64,000 nucleotides of DNA from sequence record PV636258.1. One strand, written 5' to 3'. Positions 1,968 to 25,778 of this stretch are shown here, piece after piece. The translations under genes were made by a program, and so were the position numbers. Source of the DNA: a phage. Position 1 is the stretch's first letter. Every line of letters begins with the position of its first letter. A model generated the notes under the pieces. The model worked only from the letters and a program-made list of their open reading frames with translations, made no database searches and had not been told where the DNA came from.

Positions 1968-2028
1968 GACTTTACCCTCAATTTTGAAGGTATTTAGTCA
2001 ATCATTAATTCTTTTGAGGAATTGATAA

Positions 2029-6600: not shown

Positions 6601-8473
6601 CGCCATCTAGGACGAAGCTGGAGGTCACGTCTGCGCCAGTATCGTTTTTGACCGACACCAATTTCCAACCATCGTGATTCGCCAAAGGGCGGCTAGTCTG
6701 CGAGGTGAATGTCACTGTTTCAGTTGTTTCAGTGATGGTCTTCGTTTTGATTGTGGCCGTGGTACGAATCATCAGCGCCAGCAAATTGATTGACTGGTTA
6801 GCATTACCACTGCCCAGAGAAATCTGCAGCGCCGAACCGACCGGAGAACCAGTCAAAGACAAAGAACCAGAGATATCGAACTGCGCTTCAGAACCATCAG
6901 ATTTCGCTGCAGAGTATAACGAAAATTCTGGGGAAAAACTATATCCCAATGGAGCAGAAATAGAACCCGCGCCGCTGTTGTCCAACGTCACTTTATACGT
7001 TCTCAGAACAGTGTAGTTGATATCCACGGAGCCAGTTGGTGCTAAAGTCTTGACACCGAATACCGGAAGAGAGAAGATCAGATCTATCATAGAACTCTGG
7101 TTAAACTGATTGGATTCCAGTTCAGCAGAGAACATGGTGATACCGCTTTCTTCGTAAGACACTTTGGTGATAGTGGATGCATCGCCAGTAACGACCAGGT
7201 CGCGCATGTACAGGCGGAATTCAGTTGAACTGCGTTCGGCGGATATACACAACGCCGTGGCTTGAGCAACACCGGATGCGTTCAGTAATTTGTATCGAAC
7301 GGTGCGGGATATCACTGGCACACCTTTAGAATTCTTAGTGACCAGATAATTGCCTGTGGCCACCGCAACAGGGGTGTTGTTCAGGACATCGGTATCCCGC
7401 GCCTTATCAACGATGACCAACTCTTCCCCGACGTTTTCGATACGTCGACCGCGAACATAGGATATGCCTGGTTTCATCACAGAAACAAATTTGCTCTCGT
7501 CACCGCCATCAGCGGCATTGAATACCCCGCCATTGTTATTGACTTTCAGGTGTTCACGAATATCGATCTGATGGGTTGAAACGTTGTAATCGCCATTGGT
7601 TTCATAAGTCCGTTGGGCTAACGTGTCTTCCAGAATATTATAGGTGGACTGAGTCACCATAGACTGGATTTTACCATCACGAACTTTGGCCAGTTCAACA
7701 AAGTCTTCAACCACAGCATCATAATCAAATCGAGATAAGACCAGATCTATTCGAAGACGATGAGCGCCTGGGGCTTTGGAGTTAATCGTTCCCTGAGCAT
7801 TTGAATAAAGGGATTCATCTTCTGTTTCGGTGACAATAGTTTCGGTGACTTTAAATCCGATGCGGTGGGAAGTGATGTTAGAAGTTTTATCAACGATAAG
7901 AGTTGCGTCATCAACGTCTAGGAACATCCCACGAATGAAGTAAACGCCTTTCGTCATACGAGCGACGATAGAACCAGTCACCGCAGCTGCGATACCATAA
8001 CCAATACGAATGAAATTATCATTCACATCGTAAGTCTGGAAATACAGATTATCGTTAACATGGAATCCGTCAGCATTACCCGCTTCAGTCATCTCAAGGA
8101 TAGCCAGCATCGTATCAGGAGCAGACAGATCACGTTCAAGAGACAACACACGCGCTTTGGCATTATTGTCCTTCCCCAAAACGTAGAGTTCAGAAATACC
8201 TTCCAGATCAGTGAATTCAGTACCACCAGCCAAAGTGAATTTCAAAGAGACTGCGGCATTGGTAATCGTCAGACCGCCAGGGATAACCATAGAACCATCT
8301 TTGAACAAATGGTTGCCCAGTTTTTCAATTTGATCCTGAAGAATAGTCTGCATCTGGTTCAGTTCGCGAGTCTGAACCTTGATAGGCATCGGACGAAAAA
8401 GAATCCGTGAAAAACGTTTCCCAGGATTCCAGTCATCCCAATACGGGCGACGGTTTAAATTTGTAGATTGCAT
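3635..8473 (-). CDS. Very large virion structural protein (1612 aa), putative baseplate or fibre component
   Basis: Uninterrupted 4.8-kb ORF; ATG with GGAG SD 9 nt upstream; position adjacent to the tailspike genes; Thr/Ser/Gly-rich beta-type sequence. Confidence 0.7.
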   Translation of the reverse strand: MQSTNLNRRPYWDDWNPGKRFSRILFRPMPIKVQTRELNQMQTILQDQIEKLGNHLFKDGSMVIPGGLTITNAAVSLKFTLAGGTEFTDLEGISELYVLGKDNNAKARVLSLERDLSAPDTMLAILEMTEAGNADGFHVNDNLYFQTYDVNDNFIRIGYGIAAAVTGSIVARMTKGVYFIRGMFLDVDDATLIVDKTSNITSHRIGFKVTETIVTETEDESLYSNAQGTINSKAPGAHRLRIDLVLSRFDYDAVVEDFVELAKVRDGKIQSMVTQSTYNILEDTLAQRTYETNGDYNVSTHQIDIREHLKVNNNGGVFNAADGGDESKFVSVMKPGISYVRGRRIENVGEELVIVDKARDTDVLNNTPVAVATGNYLVTKNSKGVPVISRTVRYKLLNASGVAQATALCISAERSSTEFRLYMRDLVVTGDASTITKVSYEESGITMFSAELESNQFNQSSMIDLIFSLPVFGVKTLAPTGSVDINYTVLRTYKVTLDNSGAGSISAPLGYSFSPEFSLYSAAKSDGSEAQFDISGSLSLTGSPVGSALQISLGSGNANQSINLLALMIRTTATIKTKTITETTETVTFTSQTSRPLANHDGWKLVSVKNDTGADVTSSFVLDGGQRDAGYYKSNLLSSAGAISGTYTVVYQYFAHSSGDFFSADSYTSMDYKDIPNYTSSTSGAVYGLADSLDFRPKITNGTSDTDMVRPNTAVILDTEYYLPRIDAIYLADNGVFGVARGISSNNLASPAIPANAMRLYELLIPPYTPNIDDIQIRTIDNRRYTMRDIGKLETRISNVEYYTSLSQLESSAMTQQVFDPITGNPRFKNGIAADPFKDFRLIDDLSEDWMGSIDTENGRLRPFVQQNVVDMTPVGWNKVMDGMVVCNYTPEISVNQEYATTTINVNPYAVFNWEGFLKINPTTDYWFENYYVAPRIINETINTRGTVQEGSVYGTWRTVSVSDRVWEPHGAGGVWWGYRYRTTVSARDVTTYTYTDKTTTTMTGEQIVETQVIPYMREIDISFDASGLRPFTRMYAFFSGRDVNLYCKPNGGNFGDPITTDANGAVKGVFRVPQNDTIKFNTGDNVFRLTDSPVDSKSADDTLTNAEIVHKSFGKKQGIQKTFVNTRVLGYTASTRTETSTSEVVVDQWRDPIAQSFMVATKNGGEYIEGVEVFFSTKSRDVPITLEIREMENGLPSHTVITRKTLNPSEVTISTDSSGGTKFTFDYPVYLQASTEFAIVLLANTQDYNAYIAEMGKKNLLSNEYIAKQPYTGVFFTSSNGSTWSPNQMADMKFRIYRCNFAAGQNVVTFDPKLGPKQRPLGLNTLNCVSGSSVVTVFAPGHGLVAGNNVTLSELTGGCGFTPEQLNKTFTVTDASYTSFKIDVGTAADSNGQIGGDNASFLGNYLVDMFYASVTNSALEGSILKLEYRYRDATSNSMSDWAEFETDTDVALPTEGIYRQVGDFQIRATMTRSENNVYTAPMIDGDDLSVIFNSYGVDPFEDVFKYVTKDIGFDNPCSTVKLFFGAMLPSQSSMKVQVKLLRAGQEMDSVAWEDVTPTSPLVNDGSTFFEYEYDKTVASNNPFVGLKVRALVRGNRVAPPSFKDFRLIALA

Positions 8474-8545
8474 TTTGATGCTCCATCGAGTGCCATTTAT
8501 AGAGATATTTAGTATACAGCCAACAAACAGGATAGAAATAAAACC

Positions 8546-8566
8546 CCCCGCCGAAGCGGGGTTTTT
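8546..8566. terminator. Intrinsic terminator after tailspike gene (hairpin CCCCGC-CGAA-GCGGGG)
   Basis: GC hairpin flanked by A-run and T-run; same hairpin recurs at 12830-12845 and 15067-15082. Confidence 0.6.
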
Positions 8567-8579
8567 ATTCTTAATGATT

Positions 8580-10511
8580 TTATAATATCATCAAATCCTC
8601 AACCCATGTTCCTGGGCTACCTCCAATCTGACATACCCAACCCTTCAGCAGACAATCAGCCAGCTTTCCAAGCGCGGTAATGTTACGCGATACCACTGTT
8701 GGATTTTTTTTAGCGATATAAGAGCCTGTTGACCAGGTTATATTCCCGTAGTATGCAGGCTCTGTTTGCGGGTTGACATCGCCAACACCCACGTCGCGAC
8801 CAAGTGCAGAAATAGTTCGTTCTATTTCGCCATATTGTAAACTATAGCGTACATGGGTTGGCCCGTTCGCTGCATTAAGAAATACTTTCCCGGCCCCGCA
8901 CATACCAGACAGTGATATCAGTTGCTGATTGCCTGGATAGACGCTGTAAAGGTTGCCATCCGTGAAATTCGCTTGCACCAGGGATGTCCCGTTTTGTGTG
9001 ATCGCGGGTAGGTTATAAGCAAAGTACGACGCCGACGCTTTTTGATCTGCAGTCAGATACGCGGTATTGCCTGTCACGACGAGCGAATTTGATTTATCAC
9101 CCGATGCACCTATATCCAGGTACTGGCCCGTCATAAGCTCAAGTGTATTGTCTGCAAAAGTAAATCCTGACACGCCACCGATTATTACTACACCGTTTTG
9201 AGAACCCTCAATGCAGCATTCAGTGACTGACGAATATGTTACGCATTGCCCAGTAGCTGTTGCTCGTGCGAAATCCCAACCGCGTTCAAACACAACCTTT
9301 GACAATCTGACATCAAACCACTGCCCCGCATCAAGCGCATAGCCTTGAGGAGAGCGGATTATCTTTGTGCCAGTAAGGTATAAAGTTTGCAACCAATTGT
9401 TTGATTTAGCTACTAACAGTCCATTTACAGTGCCCCCATTGAACAGAACACGAATCAACTTCTGACCGTTAATAATGTATGTAACTTTTGATGTATCCTT
9501 CTGCGAAAAGTTAGTGCCTACAAACTCAATATTACCAGAAGCATTATCGGCTTCAGTTGATGAGAATACATATTGTTGACCATTTGCTACTATCTCACCA
9601 CCGATAAATGACACAAATTTTTCAGGTACAGAAGTATCAAGGTTGTTTACATTTACTGTTCCATCAATGCGGATAGTGCCATTGATGTAAACTGGTGGTC
9701 GTATTTTACCTGACACCATCCCATCGACACATCTTTGCATAGCTTCTGTATTGTCGAAGTCTCCGTATCTACCACCTGACAAATAAGCAAAATCGTTATG
9801 TGGATTTATACGCTTCCACCTTTTCCCATTGGTGGTCACAATCACCAATGTACCGTCATCCGCAGATGTTGTGTCGTTAGGGTCATAATAAAAAGCACCA
9901 GCACCAGATTTACCAGCATCACTATCATTATAGCGATTAACCATTATCTGCTGGTTTGGTGTCGATGGCTCAATCGACCTAAGCCCTTCTACGCTTGAGT
10001 ACCCTATGTATTTGAAGCCGTCTTCTTTTGAAAGTTCACTACGTAGAGAAACATCTCCAACACTAACCCACGCACCTAAACCAACACCACCCGTTGTTGC
10101 TGGGGTTGAACCAGGAGCAACGGTTTTAGGGAATGCACCATTCCAACGATATAGACTCACCCCATCGCTCACGACTTCGTTCTTGACACGAATCGTAAAT
10201 CCAGAAGTAAAATTTTCAACAAGAGTAACATACTCTTCCCTTAACACAGCCAATGCACCCAAATCTACGGTGCCTCCAGAGTGCGTGAGGATGCCGTCGA
10301 CCAAACTGGTGACCGTTACAGCACCAATGTTAGAAGGGAGAGCGTAGGCACGTTGAGACAACTTATCGTAGATCACTTTATAACCAGACAATGACTGTCC
10401 CGCTTTGGCATAAACGACTTCCGACTTTTTACACCCAAATTTACGGGCAATACTATCTTTGTTCGATTCTTTTGAAGTAGAACCTTTTGGTTGAGCAAAT
10501 TGCGGATTCAT
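8580..10511 (-). CDS. Tailspike-like protein (643 aa), beta-helix receptor-binding type
   Basis: N-terminal about 130 aa (ARKFGCKKSEVVYAKAGQSLSGYKVIYDK...GGVGLGAWVSVGD) shared with ORFs 12859-14985 and 15089-18592; C-terminal Gly/Asn/Thr-rich repeats typical of right-handed beta-helix. Confidence 0.65.
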   Translation of the reverse strand: MNPQFAQPKGSTSKESNKDSIARKFGCKKSEVVYAKAGQSLSGYKVIYDKLSQRAYALPSNIGAVTVTSLVDGILTHSGGTVDLGALAVLREEYVTLVENFTSGFTIRVKNEVVSDGVSLYRWNGAFPKTVAPGSTPATTGGVGLGAWVSVGDVSLRSELSKEDGFKYIGYSSVEGLRSIEPSTPNQQIMVNRYNDSDAGKSGAGAFYYDPNDTTSADDGTLVIVTTNGKRWKRINPHNDFAYLSGGRYGDFDNTEAMQRCVDGMVSGKIRPPVYINGTIRIDGTVNVNNLDTSVPEKFVSFIGGEIVANGQQYVFSSTEADNASGNIEFVGTNFSQKDTSKVTYIINGQKLIRVLFNGGTVNGLLVAKSNNWLQTLYLTGTKIIRSPQGYALDAGQWFDVRLSKVVFERGWDFARATATGQCVTYSSVTECCIEGSQNGVVIIGGVSGFTFADNTLELMTGQYLDIGASGDKSNSLVVTGNTAYLTADQKASASYFAYNLPAITQNGTSLVQANFTDGNLYSVYPGNQQLISLSGMCGAGKVFLNAANGPTHVRYSLQYGEIERTISALGRDVGVGDVNPQTEPAYYGNITWSTGSYIAKKNPTVVSRNITALGKLADCLLKGWVCQIGGSPGTWVEDLMIL

Positions 10512-10571
10512 AATGAGAATCTCCTGTTTTTCTAATAAACCCTCTCCTGAGAGAGGGAGAGGGGTAAATTA

Positions 10572-12761
10572 TTAATAAACTAAACCATCTGCAGACATAC
10601 CAACACAATACCAATGAGAAAAGTTAGCATCCCACACAAAGGACAATCCTTTTTGTTTACCAGATTCTGGAGGAACAAATCCCCCAATACGGAAACTGTC
10701 TCCCCAATTTACAGTAAGTGGTTGCCCTGATGTATTATAGATAATCATGTCCATACGCATCCCGTCTCTGGCATTATCTAAAGTATTGATGGTTATTGTG
10801 GAAGATGTCGCGTTAATAGTTGCTAAACTACATTTCATGGGATCTATGGTTACTGTCCCTGTCCCATCATGTTGAACTCTTTTGTTAACAGGGTTAGTCG
10901 AACCTGTATAAGTCGCGTTGCTTATGTTATACAAAGAATCCCAGTCATTTGTTTTATCATCATCTAAAATAGTGGCCGACGCGCCTAATAGCATAGTTCC
11001 TTCTATTTTATTCCCCTTTGTACCTCCATAAAAATGGAATCCAGAAGAAGAACCACCAATCCAACGGTTAAATTCAGCGCCTTGTATTTGCGACGATGGA
11101 GAACTATAACCCGCCATAACCCCCAAAAATAAGTTACTTGTCGCGGTTTTACGCAACAACACATCGCCATCAGAGTTAACTTCCATGTCCATTCCAATAA
11201 CCGTATTTGTAACCGCAGTTTGCGCCAAATCAGATTCATGTCCAAAAGCGATACCGAAACGACAACCTTCAGAAGTACCATTCATAAATATAGTATTGAT
11301 ACAGAATGTTGCTTCGATACCTGCTTCTGTCGTATGTTCACAAACAGGATTAATAAACGTATCGGCAGAAGTACCTCTTTTACTCGGAGATCCTTCTTCA
11401 TAATCGATTAATATTCCATATTTTGGTGTAGTGGTAAACAATTCCACATTCTTACTACAATGAAAATTATTATACAAATTACATTGAGTCCACCAACAAT
11501 GAAGCCCCGCACGAGAAATATTTGTGGCGCGTAAATTATCAAATCTAGAAGAAATTACTCCTCGAAGTGAAAACCCGTCTTTAGCAAATCCCTTTCCATC
11601 TACAATAATATTGCTCATATATGCTTCGTAGCCCCAATACATCAGGTCTGTATCACGAAAATCAAATTGTATAACATAATCATGATCACCACCAGTTAAT
11701 TCAATACGAGCGCCCTTCTCTCCTATTAAAGTCACAGGTTTGGTAAAATTCAATGGTAAACTGGTAAGATAAATCCCTTTAGGAAAGTATATGACCAATC
11801 CTGATAAAGCCCCTGCAACTGCTAATTGTAATCCGGCGGTATCATCGGTAACACCATCTCCTTTGCAACCATAATCCTTAACACTTATCGGATTATCTTC
11901 TAATTTAGAAGTAACAGAACGTACCAATGCACCAACTGCCGAATTCTTAAAATTAACCAAATTTGTACCCGTTGGACTACCTAATTCTGCTCTCAGTAAT
12001 GCAGCACTATTAGGCAATGGCAACAAATTAACCTGAACATCTCCTGGGTTGTAATTCAATTTCCCACCAGATACAGAAGAAATGACAGAACCATCAGGAA
12101 TGGTTGGTAAACCATAACTGGTTTGCGTCGCTATGTCATAAACAACTTTCTTCCCATCCAACAAAGATATGGTGTCCGTACTAACGATGACTTCAGAGTC
12201 TTTAACATTAGCAGAACGGGCAATTTCTTGAATACTGCGGTCAAACAACGGACTGATATTCGGTTGTTTAACAGACATTTCAGCGACTACCCAAACGCCT
12301 GCAGTCAGTGCAGTTTGCAAAGACACTTTCCCTGTCGTGCTGTTATAGGAATATTCAATTTCTGGTGTTTTGTACTCGCCACCGATATAAAGAGATTGGA
12401 CACCATAGGATGTGAAATCAGGAGTGAACTCGGTTTCACCTCCTACGGCCTGAAATTTGTATATGCGGATACCTTTGGCTGTATCTTCTGGCGAAAGAAT
12501 TTTATCGAATAAGCAATACACAACATCGCCTTTGGACAATGCGCGCCCGAGATTCAACATATTTCCTTCGATTTCAAAGTTGTCTAACGGAACTTGCATA
12601 CCACCGTTGATTGTGATAACACCAGTGACGGGATGGAACGGCAAAGAAAGGAAAGTTTCTCCACCGACATTTGATTTATACGTGAAAGGAATCTGGTGGG
12701 GAGCTGTGATTACGCCGCCGAATAATTCTTCTACATTTCTAGTCATTTGAAAATACCCCAT
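10572..12761 (-). CDS. Tailspike-like protein (729 aa)
   Basis: Partial copy of the shared anchor module (residues about 180-270), beta-helix-like C-terminal region; part of the four-gene tandem array. Confidence 0.6.
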   Translation of the reverse strand: MGYFQMTRNVEELFGGVITAPHQIPFTYKSNVGGETFLSLPFHPVTGVITINGGMQVPLDNFEIEGNMLNLGRALSKGDVVYCLFDKILSPEDTAKGIRIYKFQAVGGETEFTPDFTSYGVQSLYIGGEYKTPEIEYSYNSTTGKVSLQTALTAGVWVVAEMSVKQPNISPLFDRSIQEIARSANVKDSEVIVSTDTISLLDGKKVVYDIATQTSYGLPTIPDGSVISSVSGGKLNYNPGDVQVNLLPLPNSAALLRAELGSPTGTNLVNFKNSAVGALVRSVTSKLEDNPISVKDYGCKGDGVTDDTAGLQLAVAGALSGLVIYFPKGIYLTSLPLNFTKPVTLIGEKGARIELTGGDHDYVIQFDFRDTDLMYWGYEAYMSNIIVDGKGFAKDGFSLRGVISSRFDNLRATNISRAGLHCWWTQCNLYNNFHCSKNVELFTTTPKYGILIDYEEGSPSKRGTSADTFINPVCEHTTEAGIEATFCINTIFMNGTSEGCRFGIAFGHESDLAQTAVTNTVIGMDMEVNSDGDVLLRKTATSNLFLGVMAGYSSPSSQIQGAEFNRWIGGSSSGFHFYGGTKGNKIEGTMLLGASATILDDDKTNDWDSLYNISNATYTGSTNPVNKRVQHDGTGTVTIDPMKCSLATINATSSTITINTLDNARDGMRMDMIIYNTSGQPLTVNWGDSFRIGGFVPPESGKQKGLSFVWDANFSHWYCVGMSADGLVY

Positions 12762-12767
12762 AAAGGA

Positions 12768-12805
12768 TTTGCCAATATGGGGTATTTAGTCTGAACTAAT
12801 AAAAT
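12768..12805 (-). promoter_or_regulatory. Conserved hairpin directly upstream of tailspike start codon, 3-prime arm contains the GGGG ribosome-binding site
   Basis: ATACCCCATA / TATGGGGTAT 10-bp inverted repeat; nearly identical cassettes at 14992-15028 and 18598-18637. Confidence 0.5.
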
Positions 12806-12829
12806 TTATGAACAAAGGTATAATAAGAA

Positions 12830-12845
12830 CCCCGCCAAAGCGGGG
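12830..12845. terminator. Intrinsic terminator (CCCCGC-CAAA-GCGGGG)
   Basis: Same GC hairpin as at 8546 and 15067, T-rich on the minus strand downstream of gene 12859-14985. Confidence 0.55.
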
Positions 12846-12858
12846 CATAAGTTACTTA

Positions 12859-14985
12859 TTACACAGATAACTTCATACGTGTTTTACTTCCATCAGGGAG
12901 TCGTATCAAAGCCCACAGTGCACCCGCATCTAAGTACAAGGACATTGTATTAATATCCAACACACCTTCATCCGGTAATACTGTACCAGAAATAGGTAGC
13001 TCAGTTGTCTTATAATCTCCTCGGTTAACCTTGAGAGATACAGCATTAGGGGTTGAACCAGAGAGTGCAGTTAACTCAGTCCATGCTGAACCAGAACCAG
13101 CAGAACCGTTCAGATGGGAACGTAAAGCACCACTATCCAGAGTAGCTGACAGCTTGTTAATACGTAGAGCCAACTCAGCAGTATCACTATTGAACCCGAT
13201 GACTCTAGACTGACCTAATACTGGGTCAAGTAAGTTACCAACAAGAATTTTATCTGGAGGAACATTACCGACCAACCCACTTATTGTGGAGTTTGGTGCA
13301 CTGATAACCAGACCATTTGATGGTTGTGGTTTAATCCCTGCAGCCCTAATCCCATTAACAATACAATCACCTATAATGATAATTTGGTCAGAATCAAAAT
13401 TAAGGTAGTTACAATCAATAACTGTAATGTTAGAAAATACACGGTTGTAAGTATGTGCAAGCATACCTGCACCAGCACAATCCTGTACGGTAACGTTAGA
13501 AACATACCCACCACGACCATCCATACCTAAACCAACACCAAGTGAGTTCATAACAAGAATATTATCAACCAAATGGTTATTAGGCAGTTGGTGGAATGGA
13601 TATTCAGATACAGGTAAATCCCCAGGTCTATCCGGTTCTGGTGCCATACCTGGGTCAGAACCCAAGTCAAAACCATTCCAAACAGGAGACAATGCAACAG
13701 AATCCCTGAACTGTAGATTATAGTTACGTGCAGTACCACCACCAACGGAACCCTGATAAGTCTTGAAACCAGACTCACCAGCTCGCCATGATGTAACACC
13801 AATAACTCCACCATTGTGGGATTCACCACCATTATTTCTCAGGAACTGAACACCACTACCAGAACCATAATGAACACGTCCACCAATAACATAATTACCT
13901 AATCCCCAATCACCACTAAGGTTCTCAAAGGTAATGATTCCATCTTTACCACCAATGATGCTATCTGAATCAATTACCTTGCAGTGATGACAACTACGGA
14001 AAAGGTAAGCAGCCATAAGACCACCAGCATTTCTTATTTCTACTCGGCTGGCACTGCGAATATCTAGAGTGGCTGTAATATGTTGGTCTTTAACGTTCTG
14101 TGGGAGTAATGCCTCTAATCCAGGGAATTTAACCCAGTCATTTACCCCAGGTTGATAGCCTTCAATCTTTGATTGCTTCAGCGTTGCAGCAACAAGGGCA
14201 GCATCTGTAATCCATTTACCATCAGCATCCCACGGGAAAATGACCCATGGAGTAGTCTTGCTCTCCATGAATGGTTGATTAATTACCGAGCCTGGCCCCA
14301 TATTATTAAAGATTAAAGCCCCATCTCCAATAAACTTAGCCTTACAGTTAATGGTTAAAATCTTACCACCAAAATCTACAGACTCACCATCTGTGAAGTT
14401 GTAATTGATATCAATAAGCAATCCATCTACGGCTGCTGTCGCTGCATCCTGTAATGTAGAATAATCAGATAACTTTACTGAATATTTGAATTTTTTGTTG
14501 GCTTCCTGTCTAAATGCTGCGTCACCAACACTCAACCATGCACCTAAACCAACACCACCTGAACTATCTGGAGTAGAACCAGCGGCAACTACCTTTGGCA
14601 AAGAACCATCCCATCGATATTTTTTATCATCGTGAACAAGAAGTTCATTTTTCACATTAATGGTATGGCCGAAATTAAAAGAACCAGGTAAAGTCACATA
14701 TTCTTCGCGGCTTACTGCTAATTCCCCAAGGTCAACAGAGCCAGCGGAATGAGTGAGGATAGCTCTTTCATCCAGACTAATTGCAGTTGTCCCTGAAACA
14801 ATACCGAAAGGGAGAGAATAAGCCCGTTGGGTAGACTCATCATAAATTACTTTAAATCCACTGAGATCAATACCAGCAGTGAAATAAATGACTTCGTCTT
14901 CTTTGACACCGAAATTTCGAGCGATAGATTGTTTGTTAACTTCTATGGAAGTGGAGCCGCGTGGTTGATTGAATTGAGAAATCAT
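12859..14985 (-). CDS. Tailspike-like protein (708 aa)
   Basis: Shares N-terminal anchor module (ARNFGVKEDEVIYFTAGIDLSGFKVIYDE...GGVGLGAWLSVGD); C-terminal beta-helix-like repeats. Confidence 0.65.
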   Translation of the reverse strand: MISQFNQPRGSTSIEVNKQSIARNFGVKEDEVIYFTAGIDLSGFKVIYDESTQRAYSLPFGIVSGTTAISLDERAILTHSAGSVDLGELAVSREEYVTLPGSFNFGHTINVKNELLVHDDKKYRWDGSLPKVVAAGSTPDSSGGVGLGAWLSVGDAAFRQEANKKFKYSVKLSDYSTLQDAATAAVDGLLIDINYNFTDGESVDFGGKILTINCKAKFIGDGALIFNNMGPGSVINQPFMESKTTPWVIFPWDADGKWITDAALVAATLKQSKIEGYQPGVNDWVKFPGLEALLPQNVKDQHITATLDIRSASRVEIRNAGGLMAAYLFRSCHHCKVIDSDSIIGGKDGIITFENLSGDWGLGNYVIGGRVHYGSGSGVQFLRNNGGESHNGGVIGVTSWRAGESGFKTYQGSVGGGTARNYNLQFRDSVALSPVWNGFDLGSDPGMAPEPDRPGDLPVSEYPFHQLPNNHLVDNILVMNSLGVGLGMDGRGGYVSNVTVQDCAGAGMLAHTYNRVFSNITVIDCNYLNFDSDQIIIIGDCIVNGIRAAGIKPQPSNGLVISAPNSTISGLVGNVPPDKILVGNLLDPVLGQSRVIGFNSDTAELALRINKLSATLDSGALRSHLNGSAGSGSAWTELTALSGSTPNAVSLKVNRGDYKTTELPISGTVLPDEGVLDINTMSLYLDAGALWALIRLPDGSKTRMKLSV

Positions 14986-15066
14986 GATAATACCCCATAA
15001 AGGATGACCAATATGGGGTATTTAGTCTGAATTAACAAAATTTTATAAACATGGATATAATAAGAA

Positions 15067-15082
15067 CCCCGCCGAAGCGGGG
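15067..15082. terminator. Intrinsic terminator (CCCCGC-CGAA-GCGGGG)
   Basis: GC hairpin followed by TTTTT. Confidence 0.55.
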
Positions 15083-15088
15083 TTTTTA

Positions 15089-18000
15089 CTATGATGTAAA
15101 TTTCATTGCATCCCATGTTGTACCATTATGTCGATACCCGAAAATATTTGATGCCCCAGCAATAACATCATATCTGTCACCAGACGCATTACCAAAAGGC
15201 CTGTCAGGAACAGAAGTTGTGTCAGTTGCTAAAATGCCTTTAAACCACCATCCATTCTGGGTGTTTGGTTTGTATTTGTAAAATTGTTTAACATATGGTT
15301 GAGTTGGCGAGTCAACATTAATTTGCCCATGAATACCAGCGTATCCGTATAAAGGTTCACTGGTATTCACATCACTGTATACATCAATGTTGAAGTAGTA
15401 ATCCTGTACGGATAGTGGAGCTATCCCAAGCGCTGGATGCATCCATCTATCTGTTTTAATATCAGCAGTGAATTGCACAACACCAACAGTCACTCCTGCT
15501 GCTTGTTGTAATAAACCCAGGACACCACCAAACTGACAATTTGTCATATTCCATTTAATATGCATTTCAGCAAGGTGAACAAGATAATCGTTGGCAAATT
15601 TATTGGTAAACCTTATGGCTGTGTTGTCTGATAATTGAGGTGAACCGTTGGTCCCGCAAGAGACAAAAGAGTCATTGCTGTTGAAAGTAGCACCTGTTTT
15701 TTGTTTACCCAAGCGAACACACCCCCAAAAACCTGAGAAAGTGTTATTTTCACTAACAACTTCTTTGAAATAGTCCAGGTCATAAGCAACGTTTGCAGCT
15801 TTTTGTTCAGTTGTCCAATCTGTGGCTCTGTTTTTTTGCAATATGTTATTATTTGCAGAGTAAATAATTGCATTAATAGTGGTTGGGTCAGATGACAAAA
15901 CAGACGGCTGCTGTGTTGTGAATGCCGCAGTATTAGGATACCCGATAACTTGCTTTTCTGATCGTAGCGTTACAGTATTACCAATAAATCTGGCAACAGT
16001 TGTAACGTTAGGTACGGTATCCAGAACCAAAGCACTACCTGCGTCCTCACAGACGTTATTTGTGAAGGTGACTATAGATGTCGATGTAGCACCGTCGTTA
16101 GCCTTCAGGAATGGGTAGCGAGCTTTTTTGGTGATGCATCCATCAACGATCCCATTACCATGACACTCAAATACCGTACACATGTCTGACATGGTTGGCT
16201 GGATACATTTAACGTTATTTATAACGTAGCCATCGGAATGAATTCTTATTGATGAGTGGTCTGTTAGGTTACTGTTTCCAGTCACAGCGTCAGCAACGCG
16301 ATAGAAGTTGCAATTCTCTACACGCGTATTGTAGCTGTTGAACGCTGCCTGAGCTTCCTGGAATACCATTACGTTTGCACCAGGAGCATTCTTGACGTTA
16401 ACACCAGAAACAACCACACCGTTACTACCTTCGTAACATGCTACTGCTGGACAGTGAGCTTGTGCTCCAGACCAGTTCAATGGCGGGACAAGGTTATTGT
16501 CACCATTTTCATCAATTAGCATATCGTGGACATATGCGTTCTGAATTTCACGAATACCATCACCGAAAACTACAAAGCCTTTAGTGCCCCCGTTTTCCTT
16601 ATTGCGCTCAACAACACCATCGGCAACATACAGTAACGTTGCGTCGCCATCGCCGATGAAAGTAACGTTGTTGCGAAGAAAAATCATAACTTCCTGATTA
16701 CGATAAATAGTCAGACCATGCGCCGTGCCTTCCACAAGAGTCGTTTTATCCAACAGATAAGTGCCAGCAGGAACCATGACAACTTGCTGGGATCCGAATA
16801 GTTCCGCACGTTTCTCCGCATGATAACCTGCGAGGTTTATAGCATCGACCGCGTCTGCACCGATCTTATCTGCGATAGAATAGTTGTTATCAGCACCCCA
16901 GTTTGTAACAGACTGCCAATCATAATCTGTTAAATATCCAACACAGTAAAAATCGGGATAGTCTGGAACAGTTCCCGGCGCTACTGTATAACCACCACTT
17001 TGTATAGCACCATATTTAACCCAGAAAAGACCACTTGAATCAACAAGAGCTTGCTCGTTGGTGGTTAAAACTGAACCTTGCAAGAAAGACCCAAACTTCT
17101 CGAATTTACTATTGATATAATTATTAGCTACCCATTGGCGGGATGTTTCATCACCAACACCCACCCACGATCCAATCCCAACACCCCCAGATGTTTCAGG
17201 TGTTGATCCAGCATCGACAGTTTTAGGAAGTGTGCCATCCCAGCGATACTTTCCATCAGTATGTGTAAGCAATTCATTTTTAGTATTGATGACAGCACCA
17301 GAATCAAATGTCCCAGACAATGTAACATATTCTTCACGAGATACAGCTAATGCGCCCAGATCAACACTACCAGCAGAATGCACAAGTATAGCCGAAGAAC
17401 TAAGGCTGACTGCCGTGGTTCCAGTCGGTAGCTCTGGAATAAAATATGATCTCTGTGTTACTTTATCATAGATAACTTTATACCCGCTTAACACAGCACC
17501 AACACTAAAATAAACGACCTCTGTATCTTTAACATTGGTTACACGAGCCACTTCCCGCAAAGTATAATCAATTTGATTATAGATGTTTGGCGTTCCATTG
17601 ATAATTACAACAACTTCATCCTCTGCATCCAGTTCTTGCGCAAGGGTGATTTTACTGGTTAATGGATCGAATGTGAACCCCAGATTTTTATACTGGCGAC
17701 TTCCGTTTATATCAATGGCCGGAACATCATCAACAACGACGTCCAACGTGATTTCGGTTTCACCGCCAATCGCTGAACCCCCATTATAGACCCAGGTAAT
17801 CGTAGAAGAACCAGAACCACCGCCATTACCCAATTGAATAGGAGTATATTCAATCACCTGAAGTTCTGTGCTGGCTGGCAAAGAAGGACTGAAAGTGATT
17901 AAATTCCCATCTAGTGAATATTTGGATTCCGCAAGACGTTTTCCGTCAGCATACACGTCCACGATTGTTGGTGGAGTATTGAGAGTGACAGCACTTGTTT

Positions 18001-18592
18001 CAGACGCCAAAATTTGTGTAAAGATTTCACGACTGTAGACACGGCCTTGGCCAAGACCGACGCCGGATGTGATAACCCAACCTTGTTCAGGTCCAGACCA
18101 AGTGAACGTTGCTGATACGTTATCAGTTGTTATAGCCATGTCTTCAGTGGTGCCATACAAATTATTTCCAGAAGGAGACACGGTCAATGGGTAAGTGGCA
18201 AATTTCCCATAAGCATCACAAATAGTAACGGAATCCCCAATACGCGTAGGGGAAGGGAGAACCACTGTAGATGTCCCTGTTGTATTATTAATGAGATAGC
18301 CACGACCTTCTAACAAATTGCTAGAGGGAGCGTAAGGGAGCGTTTCCCAGCGTATTCCACCGCCCCCCAAAGACAACCAACCACCGTTTTCGTAATAACC
18401 TTCAAATTCATCACTATCAGGATTGTAACGCACAGAAGATGGAAGACCTGTAACTTCAGTATCTTCAGGAAATGTCATTACGGCACCAGGGGAATGCTCA
18501 ATAGTGCCGGAGTTGTTGAAGCCTTTTATGTTCGAAGACTCAGAAGTTTCTAAACCCAAAGGGAAAAGAGGCTGTGTTGGTTTGTTGGCCAT
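15089..18592 (-). CDS. Tailspike-like protein (1167 aa) with extra N-terminal domain
   Basis: Shared anchor module is internal (about residues 340-470: ARVTNVKDTEVVYFSVGAVLSGYKVIYDK...GGVGIGSWVGVGD) preceded by about 340 extra residues; C-terminal beta-helix-like region. Confidence 0.65.
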   Translation of the reverse strand: MANKPTQPLFPLGLETSESSNIKGFNNSGTIEHSPGAVMTFPEDTEVTGLPSSVRYNPDSDEFEGYYENGGWLSLGGGGIRWETLPYAPSSNLLEGRGYLINNTTGTSTVVLPSPTRIGDSVTICDAYGKFATYPLTVSPSGNNLYGTTEDMAITTDNVSATFTWSGPEQGWVITSGVGLGQGRVYSREIFTQILASETSAVTLNTPPTIVDVYADGKRLAESKYSLDGNLITFSPSLPASTELQVIEYTPIQLGNGGGSGSSTITWVYNGGSAIGGETEITLDVVVDDVPAIDINGSRQYKNLGFTFDPLTSKITLAQELDAEDEVVVIINGTPNIYNQIDYTLREVARVTNVKDTEVVYFSVGAVLSGYKVIYDKVTQRSYFIPELPTGTTAVSLSSSAILVHSAGSVDLGALAVSREEYVTLSGTFDSGAVINTKNELLTHTDGKYRWDGTLPKTVDAGSTPETSGGVGIGSWVGVGDETSRQWVANNYINSKFEKFGSFLQGSVLTTNEQALVDSSGLFWVKYGAIQSGGYTVAPGTVPDYPDFYCVGYLTDYDWQSVTNWGADNNYSIADKIGADAVDAINLAGYHAEKRAELFGSQQVVMVPAGTYLLDKTTLVEGTAHGLTIYRNQEVMIFLRNNVTFIGDGDATLLYVADGVVERNKENGGTKGFVVFGDGIREIQNAYVHDMLIDENGDNNLVPPLNWSGAQAHCPAVACYEGSNGVVVSGVNVKNAPGANVMVFQEAQAAFNSYNTRVENCNFYRVADAVTGNSNLTDHSSIRIHSDGYVINNVKCIQPTMSDMCTVFECHGNGIVDGCITKKARYPFLKANDGATSTSIVTFTNNVCEDAGSALVLDTVPNVTTVARFIGNTVTLRSEKQVIGYPNTAAFTTQQPSVLSSDPTTINAIIYSANNNILQKNRATDWTTEQKAANVAYDLDYFKEVVSENNTFSGFWGCVRLGKQKTGATFNSNDSFVSCGTNGSPQLSDNTAIRFTNKFANDYLVHLAEMHIKWNMTNCQFGGVLGLLQQAAGVTVGVVQFTADIKTDRWMHPALGIAPLSVQDYYFNIDVYSDVNTSEPLYGYAGIHGQINVDSPTQPYVKQFYKYKPNTQNGWWFKGILATDTTSVPDRPFGNASGDRYDVIAGASNIFGYRHNGTTWDAMKFTS

Positions 18593-18638
18593 TTGTAATA
18601 CCCCTAAATGTATTCATGTCATCTAGGGGTATTTAGTT

Positions 18639-19829
18639 TTAGAAAGAAGCTGCAATAGAATAGTCGACAGAACAAGCAGTTGTCGTATTTGCATTAACAA
18701 CGGAAATTCTCAATTTACCACCCACCACAGCCCCTGTGAACGTCACTGTACCGCTCGTACTTTTCTGAACCAACAACTCTGTTTTGATCGTTCCGTCACG
18801 AGTTATGGTTACTCGATATGTGTCAACAACGTTACCCGTCCCCCATTGCGCAGTTACCAGTATTTGACAAAGGTTCACCAAATCAAAATCTGGAAGAGCC
18901 GTCGTTCCAGAAGCCGAAACCGTATATGACGACAAGTTTGTTTTTGTGCGATAAACTGCGTTCCCTAAACTGTTATCAATTGTGGTCATTTTGGCATTAT
19001 ACGTTGATACATCGACCTTACCAGTCGTGAGAGAACTGATACTGCCGTCCAAGGAAGTCATCTTCGTATTATATGTGCTGACCTCGACTTTATTACCCAG
19101 AGACGTGTTGATATTGGAGATACTCAAATCCAACGACGCCATCTTAGTGTTGTAAGTCGAGGTGTTGACTTTCCCGTTCAACGACGTGTTGATGTTATTA
19201 ATTTGAGACTCTAAACTCAGCATATCTGCATCATACGCTGTCGTTGTCACATATCCATTAAATCGGTTATCTGCAAACAACGCATCAAAAAATGCAGTCA
19301 TTGCCCAATAACGCGCTCCAGAATCTGTTTGTACTGGAACTGAAGTCGGCAACGTTGGTCCGGTATACGCAGACAATCTGGTAAAATCCAAATTGAATTT
19401 GTAATATCCGGATGTCAACAACTCCCCAGCCAAACCAGAACCAGGCGGGGTAGTGTCTTCACTGACGCCATGCTTTCTCAACATGCTCAGGTTAACACCA
19501 TCTGTCGAGTTCGTTGGTTCATCTGTGATTGAAACGGATTTTCCGGCGGGAACTTGTATGCCCCCATTGGTCACCAACAACGCATTGAAAGTCTTTTTGC
19601 CATTGATTGTTTGTTCACCACTATCTGTCCGAATAACTTTGTTGGCCAAAGTATCATTGATTGTGTCAACAGATCTTTTCAACTCGTATGTCAGGCGAGC
19701 AGATGGCGGAAACAATGGGTCGTTAACTTCAAAATCGTTAATAACGTCATTTTTACTTACTTTGTCATCAACAGAACCCAATATCTGATCTATCTGCTGA
19801 CCTGTATATTGACTCAGGAAATCGGCCAT
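18639..19829 (-). CDS. Tail fibre-like protein with tandem short repeats
   Basis: 396 aa; repeated units of the form NINTSLNGKV-TSTYNTKM-SLD-SIS in the middle of the protein. Confidence 0.55.
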   Translation of the reverse strand: MADFLSQYTGQQIDQILGSVDDKVSKNDVINDFEVNDPLFPPSARLTYELKRSVDTINDTLANKVIRTDSGEQTINGKKTFNALLVTNGGIQVPAGKSVSITDEPTNSTDGVNLSMLRKHGVSEDTTPPGSGLAGELLTSGYYKFNLDFTRLSAYTGPTLPTSVPVQTDSGARYWAMTAFFDALFADNRFNGYVTTTAYDADMLSLESQINNINTSLNGKVNTSTYNTKMASLDLSISNINTSLGNKVEVSTYNTKMTSLDGSISSLTTGKVDVSTYNAKMTTIDNSLGNAVYRTKTNLSSYTVSASGTTALPDFDLVNLCQILVTAQWGTGNVVDTYRVTITRDGTIKTELLVQKSTSGTVTFTGAVVGGKLRISVVNANTTTACSVDYSIAASF

Positions 19830-19831
19830 TT

Positions 19832-20686
19832 TTAGCTCCTTGTGCTTTCTAGGAATACAGTAAATCCAGCAGGATGGAAATGCTGACGGAAGACGCGCTC
19901 AAACACACCTTCAAAATCAGATACGTCGCCTGGGACTCCTATAACATAAGTGTATTCATCATAATAGTAATCATCACGCATCCCTGTCGTGCCGTCACAT
20001 TCAAAATTTCCGTCCAGACCGCCTATGTCTTCTTTCGTAAAATAGACGCTGACTGGACAACCGAAATATATCCAAAAGAACAATTCAATCGCTTTCTTTG
20101 TTCCACGTATTTTATAGATGTGTTTCAACAATTTCAGCCAACGCGGATGATCCAGAGTTCTCCGTTTCGTTCCTTCGATATAAACAGAGAACGTATCGCC
20201 CGTGGCCGTCAATAAAGAATCCGAACCGACTGGGATAAAATGTCCAAATTCTTGAAATGATTTATCAACAGTTCGTTGGAAACCAAAATCATTATACCAG
20301 TCATCTATCTGTTTGTTCTTATCTTCTATTGACAGTAGCGGCCTTCCGTCGGAATCTAAAAGTTCTTCGGCATCCAGAGCCATCATGTTCTCAAAGGTAC
20401 GAACCAAGAATTTATCAGACAAATAATCCTTGACCTCTGAGCCTGGGGTCTTGTCGGCCTTTAAATCAATCAGCTGCTTAACTGGAGAATCTTCACTCTC
20501 AGGATTCATCCAACTAGACGTATCTGCCAGATATGCCAAGATCTCTTCTTGAGTGAACCCCTGCTGTCTATACAACCAATTGAAGAACGTGTCCATAAAT
20601 TCTATGAACAGAGGGAAATCATTCTGGTAGAACAACGGAGTTTCATACTTAACCCCGTTGTGTCCATTATTAAGATCTTTGGACAT
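19832..20686 (-). CDS. Hypothetical baseplate-region protein
   Basis: ORF 19832-20719; start moved to ATG at 20686 (MSKDLNNGH) with GAGGTG SD; position between wedge-like and fibre genes. Confidence 0.5.
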   Translation of the reverse strand: MSKDLNNGHNGVKYETPLFYQNDFPLFIEFMDTFFNWLYRQQGFTQEEILAYLADTSSWMNPESEDSPVKQLIDLKADKTPGSEVKDYLSDKFLVRTFENMMALDAEELLDSDGRPLLSIEDKNKQIDDWYNDFGFQRTVDKSFQEFGHFIPVGSDSLLTATGDTFSVYIEGTKRRTLDHPRWLKLLKHIYKIRGTKKAIELFFWIYFGCPVSVYFTKEDIGGLDGNFECDGTTGMRDDYYYDEYTYVIGVPGDVSDFEGVFERVFRQHFHPAGFTVFLESTRS

Positions 20687-22451: not shown

Positions 22452-22752
22452 GATAATCTCCATCACCTGAGTTTGAATATGGTGTTGAAGATATTTAGCC
22501 AACAGGAATCAAAACGCTCGCGCGCGTTTAATTTATTCGAATATACTCGCGAGGGGGCTGACGCCCTCGCTCGTAACACCGCCTTGACAGGCAGTCCCAT
22601 TCCACAGCCATGGAGGCTGCTTCTCGTTGTTCGTTAACACTCACAACTCGAAGGGCACCGCGTTAAGATACAGTTTCTTGATGTTGTAGAAAAGTAGTTT
22701 TTACCTATTAATAATCACTGTCATTATTTTATTGGCCATTCCTGCGTTTATA

Positions 22753-22786
22753 TTCAATAAACGTATCTCCAATATAATAACGGAGA
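22753..22786 (+). promoter_or_regulatory. TTCAATAAA box plus hairpin with TATAAT loop, candidate promoter for gene 22815-23384
   Basis: TTCAATAAA at 22753-22761, 11 nt, TATAAT at 22773-22778 lying in the loop of TCTCC/GGAGA hairpin; ATG 37 nt downstream. Confidence 0.45.
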
Positions 22787-22814
22787 CATTTAATCAATTC
22801 GGTGAGGCTCCGAA

Positions 22815-23384
22815 ATGCACATTAACACAGCAATCATGAAACACATTATTCCTTTATTGGCAAAATACGAAGGGGAACGTGCCACGAAAATCCCTTTTGG
22901 AACAATCACAGATGAAGTGAAACGCCTGACGGGTAAAAGTATCAATTTCCGTCGCGTTGTTGAATCTGCGTTAGAGTTGGCCCGTTCTGATTTACAAAAT
23001 CCAACATTTTCATTTAATATTGACGTAACTTCTTCACTTCGTCAAGAATTGGAAGAATCATCACAAGCGCGGCGCGATCGTTTCCGTCATTTATATGTTC
23101 GTAACGAATTCTCCGAAGGTCGTGTTGGTATGAAACTGGAGTCTATTCGTTCTGATATTTGCTTCACTGTCAACTATGTTTTAGAGCCAGAGAGCCAGCG
23201 CATTTATTTTGGCGCGATTATCGGTTTCTATGGGAACTCTATTAATGGTTGGGCAGAACGTGTTGGATTAAAAGAAACCCAGAACAATCATTCCACACCT
23301 TCTACCCATTATATGACGCATGAAGCTGCTGGCGAATATGTTTACCTTCTGCGTCGTGTTGTGAAGTTAGAAGTGTTAAAATAA
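22815..23384 (+). CDS. Hypothetical protein (189 aa)
   Basis: ATG-initiated ORF downstream of promoter-like element; no recognisable motif. Confidence 0.55.
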   Translation: MHINTAIMKHIIPLLAKYEGERATKIPFGTITDEVKRLTGKSINFRRVVESALELARSDLQNPTFSFNIDVTSSLRQELEESSQARRDRFRHLYVRNEFSEGRVGMKLESIRSDICFTVNYVLEPESQRIYFGAIIGFYGNSINGWAERVGLKETQNNHSTPSTHYMTHEAAGEYVYLLRRVVKLEVLK

Positions 23385-23588: not shown

Positions 23589-24409
23589 CTCAAAGGGGAG
23601 AGGACTTTTCAAATTAGCTGGGCTGTAGTATAGTAAATTTTATGGTGTAAAGAGTCGGGCGACCAGCGGTGTAAAGGCTGAGGCCAAGCACAGTCCTAGG
23701 ACGAGGACTCCGGCTCCATAAGTCAATATCCACCTCGCTGGTGTCAGTGGACGCACTTGACCGTCGGAGAACGAAACTCCCTGTTGTAGCGTGATTAGCT
23801 CAGAATCAGAGAGCACCCCGTTGGCAAGTCGACACCAGCATATAAGGGGAGGTCGGGGGCGCTAATCTCCATCACGCCGACAACATTATGAGTCTTCATA
23901 GAGGGTTCATAATGTTGCGTCAAAGGGCAACAAGGTTCCTGTTGGTAACATAATTATTCCTACTGTCTTCCCGGATTTTAGGAGCGCCAACAGGCGAGGC
24001 CGGATGCGTAAGTTCCGGCAAATCGATGGTGAGGTGGTGCATTGGTGACACGGGGTAGCGCCCAGAAGTGTGGTTCGATTCACACCCTCTCCAACAAAAA
24101 TAAAAGGTTTTATCAATAACGGGTTACAAAGTATAGTTAACTCACTGAACGGCAAGCTGTTTGAGTCCTGGCCACTCATAGCGATGTGAGACCAAGACAG
24201 GTAGGTTTAGGACTCAAACAGGTTTTCGTTCTCGTTGCTTGCGACTTTGCGGGTTTTTAGAAACTGACCACAAAGATAAATGCAAACGATAACACGTTCC
24301 TGGCAGTAGCTTAACAGCCATACACCAGTGAGGTCTTCCGATTCCTCATCACCAAATTCGGCGCACTAAAATAGACGGGAGGGTGTGATTAATAATCTCC
24401 CGTCGACGA

Positions 24410-25664: not shown

Positions 25665-25741
25665 GGTCCTGTAGCTCAGTGGTAAGTAGCAGTGAACTCA
25701 TAATTCATTGGTCGTTGGTTCAAATCCAACCAGGATCACCA
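25665..25741 (+). tRNA. tRNA-Met (anticodon CAT; could also be an Ile-lysidine or initiator type)
   Basis: Hand-folded cloverleaf: acceptor GGTCCTG/CAGGATC (one G-T), anticodon stem GTGAA/TTCAT with loop CTCATAA, T-arm GTTGG-TTCAAAT-CCAAC, encoded CCA. Confidence 0.8.
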
Positions 25742-25778
25742 CTAAATAAACCAGTTGTTCAATAAACAATTGGTGAGT

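Follow-up and report, generated by a model that had tools for sequence, protein, structure and literature searches.

Late-Promoter Boxes Joined to Shine-Dalgarno-Masking Hairpins at Tailspike and Other Late Genes of a Kuttervirus

The Tailspike Locus

Sequence record PV636258.1 contains a 64,000-nucleotide stretch of phage DNA (the window), in which several tailspike genes are preceded by spacers that join a CTAAATA box to an inverted repeat covering the Shine-Dalgarno sequence. Between positions 12500 and 15400, the window is 100% identical to the Salmonella phages vB-SalM-PM10 (PM10), Chennai and SM5 of the genus Kuttervirus (Ackermannviridae), and outside this part it follows PM10 with scattered differences. 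Judging by its sequence, the window is Kuttervirus DNA of the PM10/Chennai type. The tailspike cluster is read from the minus strand: a hypothetical structural gene (19829-18639) is the upstream neighbor of TSP4 (18592-15089), which is followed by TSP3 (14985-12859), TSP2 (12746-10572, with the start as in RefSeq), TSP1 (10511-8580) and VriC (8473-3635).

An original prediction, made from the letters alone, described a conserved cassette between the tailspike genes that consists of a terminator, a promoter-like box and a hairpin sequestering the Shine-Dalgarno sequence. This observation is confirmed with small corrections, since every element described was found, on the minus strand. The cassette itself is real, but framing it as a tailspike feature was too narrow, as the design occurs genome-wide and family-wide among late genes.

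The TSP4-TSP3 spacer (15088..14986, minus strand, 103 nt) and the TSP3-TSP2 spacer (12747-12858, minus strand, 112 nt) share 93 identical columns when TSP2 is started at 12746. They had been described as identical at about 90 of 100 positions; with the spacer boundaries used originally, 81 columns are shared. In the leaders of both TSP3 and TSP2, the elements come in the order terminator, A/T-rich stretch, box (CTAAATACCCC) and inverted repeat. The terminator (CCCCGCTTCGGCGGGG or CCCCGCTTTGGCGGGG, with a U-rich tail) was also called by a terminator scan, as AACCCCGCTTCGGCGGGGTT followed by CTTATTATAT after TSP4 (15084-15065, minus strand) and as GCCCCGCTTTGGCGGGGT followed by TCTTATTATA after TSP3 (12846-12829, minus strand). 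A CCCCGC...GCGGGG terminator had been ascribed to the TSP4 leader as well, but the spacer between the hypothetical gene and TSP4 (18638..18593, minus strand) has no terminator; the remainder of the core expected there, a box and a 14-bp hairpin, is present.

The TSP3 box, CTAAATA(CCCC), lies at 15025-15019 on the minus strand, and the predicted transcription start (+1), the sixth base past the box, falls at about 15013. The 5′ arm of the hairpin (AATACCCCATA, 15022-15012) is an anti-Shine-Dalgarno sequence that overlaps both the box and the predicted start, while the 3′ arm (TATGGGGTATT, 14999-14989) holds the Shine-Dalgarno GGGG in front of the ATG at 14985-14983. The TSP2 leader repeats this arrangement on the same strand, with the box CTAAATA(CCCC) at 12789-12783, a predicted +1 at about 12777, the 5′ arm AAATACCCCATA at 12787-12776, and the 3′ arm TATGGGGTATTT, with the Shine-Dalgarno sequence, at 12762-12751. 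In both leaders, the 3′ arm TATGGGGTAT(T) constitutes the Shine-Dalgarno sequence, 4-7 nt 5′ of the ATG. The first ATG of TSP2 (12761) falls inside the hairpin 3′ arm, and the start of the longest open reading frame is therefore wrong; the RefSeq start, the true ATG at 12746-12744, has the GGGG Shine-Dalgarno at a proper distance. The TSP4 box, again CTAAATA(CCCC), lies at 18636-18630 on the minus strand, only 2 nt past the upstream stop codon, with a predicted +1 at about 18624; its 5′ arm (AATACCCCTAGATG, 18633-18620) pairs over 14 bp, including one G·U pair, with a 3′ arm (CATTTAGGGGTATT, 18610-18597) that contains the Shine-Dalgarno sequence, followed by the ATG at 18592-18590. The inverted repeat, given as 10 bp in the original prediction, thus measures 11-12 bp at TSP3 and TSP2 and 14 bp at TSP4, where the outer sequence is also different.

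These elements are not expected by chance. The 11-mer CTAAATACCCC occurs four times in the window, against 0.01 expected. The three RNA hairpins have folding energies of -19.6, -18.9 and -19.1 kcal/mol (z = -4.2, -4.35 and -5.8 relative to dinucleotide shuffles), at most one in 200 shuffles folds as well, and in the long RNA of TSP2, TSP3 and TSP4 the Shine-Dalgarno sequence has an unpaired probability of 0.00. Among Rfam 15 families, only four tRNAs reach the gathering threshold within the whole window, and no family covers the hairpin units.

The CTAAATA Box and Late Transcription

Papers that cite the motif CTAAATAcCcc attribute it to Adriaenssens et al. 2012. It has been cited as a “unique regulatory motif” of the Ackermannviridae (PMC7283392), and as the known late gene promoter of the family it was chosen to drive luciferase in phage CBA120 (PMC9965104). 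In the GenBank entry for phage SPTD1 (OP991882), a “Kuttervirus late gene promoter” is annotated before TSP4, TSP3, TSP2 and VriC, but not before TSP1. The proposal that the box resembles a T4 late promoter is thus borne out by what had already been published.

The PM10 annotation includes homologues of the gp55 late sigma factor, gp33 and the gp45 clamp, as well as RegA and RegB. Of the 20 CTAAATA sites in PM10, 17 are found 30-49 nt 5′ of an annotated start codon on the same strand, a zone that by our own arithmetic makes up about 1.3% of positions on both strands. The CTAAATA box is accordingly predicted to act as a −10-like, gp55-type late promoter. The T4-like phage Aeh1 uses the same late promoter, CTAAATA, beginning at −12 (PMC1524935), which places +1 at the sixth base past the box. 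With a start at this point, the 5′ arm of the tailspike hairpins extends from box position 4 to about +2. In Pseudomonas phage Cygsa01, a distant relative that shares gp6, gp7 and others, no CTAAATA with a downstream start was found in the 38 kb fetched, so its late motif is probably different.

A start farther upstream would make the hairpin part of the late mRNA itself, either as a 5′ stabilizer or as a constitutive attenuator of translation. Stable 5′ stem-loops do protect bacterial mRNAs, and no mapped start site for the Ackermannviridae was found in the literature searched. However, in virtually every case the final 3-5 bases of the box belong to the 5′ arm as well, and a box serving as a −10-like element would force the start to lie downstream of it. 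Nor is there another conserved promoter-like motif upstream, and sigma-70-like matches are no commoner than in shuffled sequence (34 against 37.4). A Shine-Dalgarno sequence constitutively locked at -19 kcal/mol would also be odd for abundant structural proteins, and a hairpin of this kind in the late message is highly improbable.

Other Genes with the Same Design

The same arrangement, with unrelated arms, precedes four non-tailspike genes in the window. The leader of the gp6 baseplate-wedge gene (22456..22498, minus strand, ATG 22451) has its box at 22498-22492 and the arms ATCTTCA-A-CACC and GGTG-A-TGGAGAT, while that of the gp14 neck-protein gene (1974..1997, minus strand, ATG 1967) has its box at 1997-1991 and the arms ACCTTCA and TGAGGGT. 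On the plus strand, a hypothetical gene (ATG 30591) is preceded by the box CTAAATACCCC and the arms ATACCCCATACA and TGTGGGGTAT (30558..30588). The fourth leader, also on the plus strand (25742..25774), has a CTAAATA box that begins 4 nt after a tRNA gene (25665-25738) ends, and it leads to a 65-codon open reading frame through a 10-bp hairpin, whose arms ACCAGTTGTT and AACAATTGGT reach into a GGTGAG Shine-Dalgarno sequence. This post-tRNA arrangement is kept in five genera, where A-to-G changes in the 3′ arm retain G·U pairs.

Further examples are found beyond the window. In PM10, the endolysin gene (19302-20096) has a leader at about 20097-20140 on the minus strand with the variant box TTTAAATA and a hairpin of 13 perfect pairs that masks the Shine-Dalgarno sequence (TTTAAATACCTTCGCA and TGCGGAGGTATTT, the 5′ arm also being given as AAATACCTTCGCA). 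The leader of a RuvC-like resolvase gene of PM10 (8483-8525, minus strand) has CTAAATA inside a perfect 13-bp hairpin (AAATACCCATAAC and GTTATGGGTATTT). The annotated ATG of this gene lies inside the 3′ arm, so the longest-reading-frame start is wrong, and the likely start is 12 nt downstream. In Dickeya phage PP35, a gene for an HNH homing endonuclease (5886-6764, minus strand), inserted in the DNA polymerase region, carries the same gate in its leader at about 6765-6800 (CTAAATACTCTTT...AAGGAGTAT).

The hairpins might alternatively serve the upstream message, as 3′-end stabilizers, weak terminators or elements that couple translation to the upstream frame. The TSP4 hairpin does lie a few nucleotides past the upstream stop codon, with no other terminator there, and UAUUUUC follows the TSP2 arm. 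At TSP3 and TSP2, however, canonical terminators are already present 40-60 nt upstream, the terminator scan did not call these hairpins, and there is no co-directional gene upstream of the gp6 hairpin. A ribosome at the upstream stop codon would presumably open only the first 2-3 of the 14 bp. A role in the upstream message is thus very unlikely.

Predicted Shine-Dalgarno Masking across the PM10 Genome

How common the masking is was assessed in PM10 from the base-pair probabilities between each Shine-Dalgarno sequence and the 13 nt that extend from box position 3 to +3, the part that would be mostly missing from a T4-type late transcript, and pairing was called at P > 0.5. By this measure, 13 of the 29 genes led by NTAAATA (45%) pair with their own Shine-Dalgarno sequence, against 9.9% in a per-distance control of 3240 gene-by-distance combinations (binomial p = 1.2e-6). 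The motif had been widened to NTAAATA because the controls included variant late promoters (TTAAATA and ATAAATA) with the same hairpin, most clearly that of the endolysin gene. Two earlier controls were dropped: one, a mean over four pseudo-distances (2.6%), was not fair, since values were averaged away, and the other, which scored each control gene at its best among 12 window positions (74 of 192; Fisher p = 0.30), was too generous. Because of these flaws, they were replaced by the per-distance control and by a permutation of cognate and non-cognate pairs.

In the latter, the promoter-proximal 14 nt form a duplex with the gene’s own Shine-Dalgarno region at a mean energy of -8.1 kcal/mol, compared with -4.3 kcal/mol for the regions of the other 28 genes (p <= 5e-5), a difference that still holds without the redundant CCCC family. 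When the RNA is cut at the predicted +1, the median unpaired probability of the Shine-Dalgarno sequence rises from 0.29 in the long RNA to 0.56, a value like that of ordinary genes.

As a positive control, the first 150 kb of the T4 genome were passed through the same pipeline, which returned P = 1.00 for gene e, the only one of 16 exact TATAAATA sites to show the masking. By the same measure, masking hairpins are thus much more widespread in this Kuttervirus, with 13 of 29, than in T4, with 1 of 16.

Conservation and Strand Specificity

The gp6-gp14 region was compared with those of Limestonevirus PP35, Agtrevirus MK-13 and P46FS4, Taipeivirus 0507-KN2-1 and IME250, Nezavisimistyvirus phiEa2809 (Ea2809) and Miltonvirus phiMAM1 (MAM1), with relatives from IMG/VR added. 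A protein-seeded scan of IMG/VR returned 11 close relatives only, and tblastn against GenBank phages was used for the wider set. Most or all of the genera compared have boxes with masking hairpins at the orthologues of gp6, TSP4, the TSP2-like genes, gp14 and the genes starting at 30591 and 25779.

The arms themselves differ. Those of gp6 read ATCTTCA/TGGAGAT in Kuttervirus, AACTTCA/TGGAGTT in Ea2809, where the change has occurred on both sides, and AGCTCTAA/TTGGAGTT in MAM1. The TSP4 leaders include the pairs CCCCTAGATG/CATTTAGGGG, CCCCTAATG/CATTAGGGG, in which one pair has been lost from both sides, and CCCCTAGAA/TTCTAGGGG; the TSP4 arms are also given as TAGATG/CATTTA, TAATG/CATTA and TAGAA/TTCTA. 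An exact-pattern scan of IMG/VR (CTAAATACCCC...GGGGTAT), which served to list arm classes only, gave further classes among the matches listed, some of which were terminator-like or chance matches in small contigs; the helix runs 3-6 bp past the fixed bases. In MAFFT alignments of the leaders, the 3′ arm is misaligned where loop lengths differ, as in Ea2809. The comparison across related phages that the original prediction had proposed as a check thus came out in its favor: pairing with the Shine-Dalgarno sequence is kept in six genera while the arm sequences differ, and the predicted pairing, not the sequence, is what is conserved. The loop of the TSP2 and TSP3 hairpins is also kept across genera, as TTGG-N4/5-(A)TCCTTT, with a small apical stem (14989-15012 and 12751-12776).

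Of 40 distinct leaders, 30 have a sense RNA that folds better than its antisense counterpart; over the set, the means are -14.6 kcal/mol for sense and -12.5 for antisense (Wilcoxon p = 1.5e-5), and G·U pairs account for 34 of those predicted. In the post-tRNA leader of IME250, the difference amounts to -10.5 kcal/mol for the sense fold versus -1.4 for the antisense. The structure is thus specific to the mRNA strand, which argues against a DNA-level palindrome. Such a palindrome might form a cruciform or be the operator of a dimeric regulator, and its CCCC and GGGG tracts would then serve the promoter or contact a protein. G·U pairs stabilize the mRNA strand only. Arm sequences, arm lengths (5-14 bp) and loops (4-13 nt and more) also vary by gene, whereas the 3′ arm is always the Shine-Dalgarno sequence at a proper distance from the ATG. 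What speaks for a palindrome is that at some genes, for example the orthologues of the PM10 gene at 107248, the box is followed by a CCCC with which the Shine-Dalgarno sequence does not pair; taken together, such an element is scarcely credible.

The same orthologues bear on the published motif. The bases after the box generally vary with the Shine-Dalgarno sequence of the gene (CCTTC, TCTTC, CTCC and others), which indicates that, for the most part, the “cCcc” half of the family motif represents the arm of an RNA hairpin that pairs with the Shine-Dalgarno sequence. In PP35, MK-13 and KN2-1, however, the 107248 orthologues have CCCC after the box and a non-complementary Shine-Dalgarno sequence (CTAAATACCCCATATGG...GAGGA), so part of “cCcc” may be promoter context.

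A Probable Fusion of Late Promoter and Translational Gate

The reading that is probably correct is that every such unit joins a late promoter of the T4 type to a translational gate over the ribosome-binding site, and that the gate probably restricts translation to transcripts started at the gene’s own late promoter. Support for a T4-like mechanism comes from the position of the 5′ arm, which a T4-type start six bases past the box would remove. CTAAATA, or more broadly NTAAATA, would be the −10-like element read by the host RNA polymerase with the phage gp55 late sigma factor. The pyrimidine-rich anti-Shine-Dalgarno sequence, which begins where the box ends and continues a few bases beyond the start, would form the 5′ arm together with the last bases of the box, the gene’s own Shine-Dalgarno sequence being the 3′ arm. 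An RNA entering from upstream would have both arms, and its ribosome-binding site would be locked in a helix of 11-14 bp at about -19 kcal/mol. Candidates for RNAs silenced in this manner are terminator read-through, the polycistronic message of gp6, gp7 and the hypothetical gene in the case of TSP4, and early or middle transcripts elsewhere. An RNA from the gene’s own late promoter would start about 6 nt past the box, lack the 5′ arm and be translated. With the gate and an upstream terminator, each tailspike gene would be expressed as a unit of its own, at late times only.

This T4-like logic had been suggested in the original prediction, and all of its consequences that could be examined in silico held: the late-transcription machinery, the box, its position, the pairing, its conservation, the strand specificity and the T4 gene e control.

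Several points weigh against the promoter-gate reading. No transcript 5′ end, transcriptome or start-site study of any Ackermannviridae phage was found in the literature searched, and the position of +1 therefore rests on the analogy with T4 and Aeh1. Good terminators already precede TSP3 and TSP2, and gp6 lies in a divergent spacer, which makes the amount of upstream RNA to be silenced uncertain. About half of the NTAAATA promoters lack the hairpin; among them are the promoters of scaffold and gp48 and, in this phage, that of VriC. Upstream pairing of the Shine-Dalgarno sequence is common in the genome (74 of 192 controls at the best of 12 positions), and only the position-specific test is significant; the permutation and strand p-values (<= 5e-5 and 1.5e-5) are moreover generous, because the compared sequences are related. 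Finally, the TSP2 and TSP3 RNAs cut at the predicted start can form a weaker AUCCU/GGGGU hairpin that leaves the Shine-Dalgarno sequence unpaired with a probability of only about 0.3. Acting as a second anti-Shine-Dalgarno sequence, AUCCU could tune translation even on the late RNA.

Comparison with T4 and Aeh1

The classic precedent is gene e of T4, whose late promoters supply the 5′ strand of a helix covering the ribosome-binding site. Late transcripts, which begin within this helix, are translated, and translation of long early transcripts is about 100-fold lower (PMC3014915). The same gate is found at T4 I-TevI, I-TevII, I-TevIII and segB and at Aeh1 mobE, and has been reported for soc, 39, 25, 26 and 49 (PMC2988022). 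In both T4 gene e and the Kuttervirus leaders, the late promoter specifies the masking helix’s 5′ strand, although the box is of the TATAAATA type in T4 and CTAAATA in the Kuttervirus, as in Aeh1. In design, the leader of the PM10 endolysin gene (TTTAAATACCTTCGCA...TGCGGAGGTATTT) nearly duplicates that of T4 gene e (TATAAATACCTTCT...AGGAGGTATT).

The homing endonuclease gene of PP35 parallels T4 I-TevI and segB and Aeh1 mobE, and the gated resolvase gene of PM10 is a functional analogue of T4 gene 49. Since the resolvase is RuvC-like and not a homologue of endonuclease VII, its regulation is analogous and was not inherited with the gene. The T4 I-Tev genes, segB, soc, 49, 39, 25 and 26 and Aeh1 mobE are late genes situated within transcription units of the early or middle period. 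In Kuttervirus, the design is also found at structural genes (tailspikes, baseplate wedge and neck) in late clusters, some of them behind their own terminators.

The T4 gate and CTAAATAcCcc as a promoter were thus already known. Beyond these precedents, the gate appears to be family-wide and near-default in the Ackermannviridae, extending the T4 “better late than early” principle to another family, in six or more genera and at nearly half of the late promoters. The Kuttervirus box is the same 11-mer as the published motif, which the sources consulted treat as a promoter only, and half of which can now be re-read mechanistically: CTAAATAcCcc would be a promoter plus an anti-Shine-Dalgarno sequence.

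Spacers as Mosaic Joints

Over positions 8000-23000, the window was compared with ten Kutterviruses bearing other tailspikes. The conserved blocks begin anew precisely at the spacers, the points being 15087-15094 or else the box at 15025, 12845 (for nearly all loci), 10514-10571 and 8542-8572. The blocks break off inside the tailspike genes, at the junction between the N-terminal and receptor-binding domains (17143-17184, 14204, 12013-12016 and 10036-10120).

This pattern raises the possibility, besides or instead of regulation, that the spacers are recombination linkers similar to the PeSL cassettes, with the cassettes and the N-terminal tailspike domains as homology arms for swaps of receptor-binding modules. 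PeSL terminator/promoter cassettes mediate shuffling in T4-type phages (PMC2839356, PMC4122927), and the presence of two cassettes with 93 identical columns in one genome also fits a linker. Like PeSLs, the Kuttervirus spacers are short composites of terminator and promoter that recur between variable genes and fall on the joints of the mosaic, here as two near-identical copies and across the 10 Kuttervirus loci. However, a PeSL has a stem-loop terminator directly with an early sigma-70 promoter, whereas the Kuttervirus cassette has a terminator with a late-type box and, in addition, a hairpin that masks the Shine-Dalgarno sequence; the promoter scan found no sigma-70 match on the coding strand of the spacers. 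The variable units are also different, being whole small open reading frames in the case of PeSLs and the C-terminal receptor-binding halves of the tailspike genes in Kuttervirus. Moreover, the promoter-hairpin unit, with unrelated arms, is found at core genes that are not swapped (gp6, gp14, endolysin and resolvase), and regulatory conservation alone would passively give the same block boundaries. A linker role is possible, but on balance unlikely.

A broader view combines the two: in the Ackermannviridae, promoter plus gate would be the default late-gene architecture, “cCcc” an anti-Shine-Dalgarno sequence and not a promoter determinant, the tailspike genes insulated plug-and-play units, and the joints would double as homology arms for the exchange of host-range modules. 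In this full form, the proposal is tentative, and the odds are somewhat against it.

Consequences for Engineering and Annotation

The gated late genes include the tailspikes, which are determinants of host range. Ackermannviridae are being engineered by tailspike swaps and by placing reporters behind the late promoter (PMC9965104, PMC12737597). If the promoter-gate reading is correct, a payload or junction that alters one hairpin arm but keeps the other would change translation, and so would transcription of a tailspike gene from an upstream promoter. For annotation, gene callers that choose the first ATG will mis-start genes such as TSP2 and the resolvase.

TSP1, VriC and Other Sites

The two remaining spacers of the tailspike cluster depart from the common plan. 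The TSP2-TSP1 spacer (10571-10512, minus strand) has a terminator of another type, CCCTCTCC...GGAGAGGG followed by TTTATT (10563-10540, minus strand), and no box; TSP1 itself has an AGGAG Shine-Dalgarno sequence without a masking hairpin. The TSP1-VriC spacer (8579-8474, minus strand) contains a third copy of the CCCCGC...GCGGGG terminator, CCCCGCTTCGGCGGGG (8561-8546, minus strand; also terminator-like on the plus strand), and a box with a weak pairing of 6 bp. In this VriC leader (8481..8512, minus strand), the CTAAATA box lies at 8512-8506 and CTCTAT pairs with ATGGAG, which includes the Shine-Dalgarno sequence, at P = 0.14, compared with 0.74 in Agtrevirus MK-13. The terminator scan thus found a G+C-rich stem-loop with a U-rich tract at four places in the cluster, 15084-15065, 12846-12829, 10563-10540 and 8561-8546, with U-tracts that are interrupted (UUCUUAUUAU).

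The VriC leader also has two tandem late-promoter-like boxes (8499-8512, minus strand), CTAAATA and, 6 nt on, TATAAATG, which recalls the tandem promoters of T4 gene e. In Taipeivirus, the TSP1-like genes have CTAAATA but no masking hairpin (at about 28673-28721 and 30792-30842 in one phage and about 27116-27163 and 29240-29290 in the other), and some of them have the leader AGAAAAACA(AC)AGGAGATTC in common with Kuttervirus TSP1.

A near-consensus sigma-70 match (TTAACA, 18 nt, TATAAT; 11 of 12) is found in antisense orientation within the TSP4-TSP3 spacer, on the plus strand at 15032-15061. It was judged to be probably incidental, as its TATAAT is the complement of the terminator U-tract. If active, it would start transcription inside the terminator stem, and the antisense RNA would read into TSP4.

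Two sites in PM10 are built differently. At about 24030-24060 on the minus strand, in front of a gene for a “starvation-inducible regulator”, the loop of a terminator-like hairpin (AATCCCCC-TAAATACA-GGGGGATT), itself followed by a T-run, contains a CTAAATA, an arrangement unlike that of the other sites. At 4727-4780, the divergent spacer between the genes for a DNA-end protector and a gp19-like tail tube protein is palindromic, with a T[TA]TAAATA box on each side, and a 5′ arm, ACTCC, upstream of the box pairs with the Shine-Dalgarno sequence GGAGT, as in T4 I-TevII.

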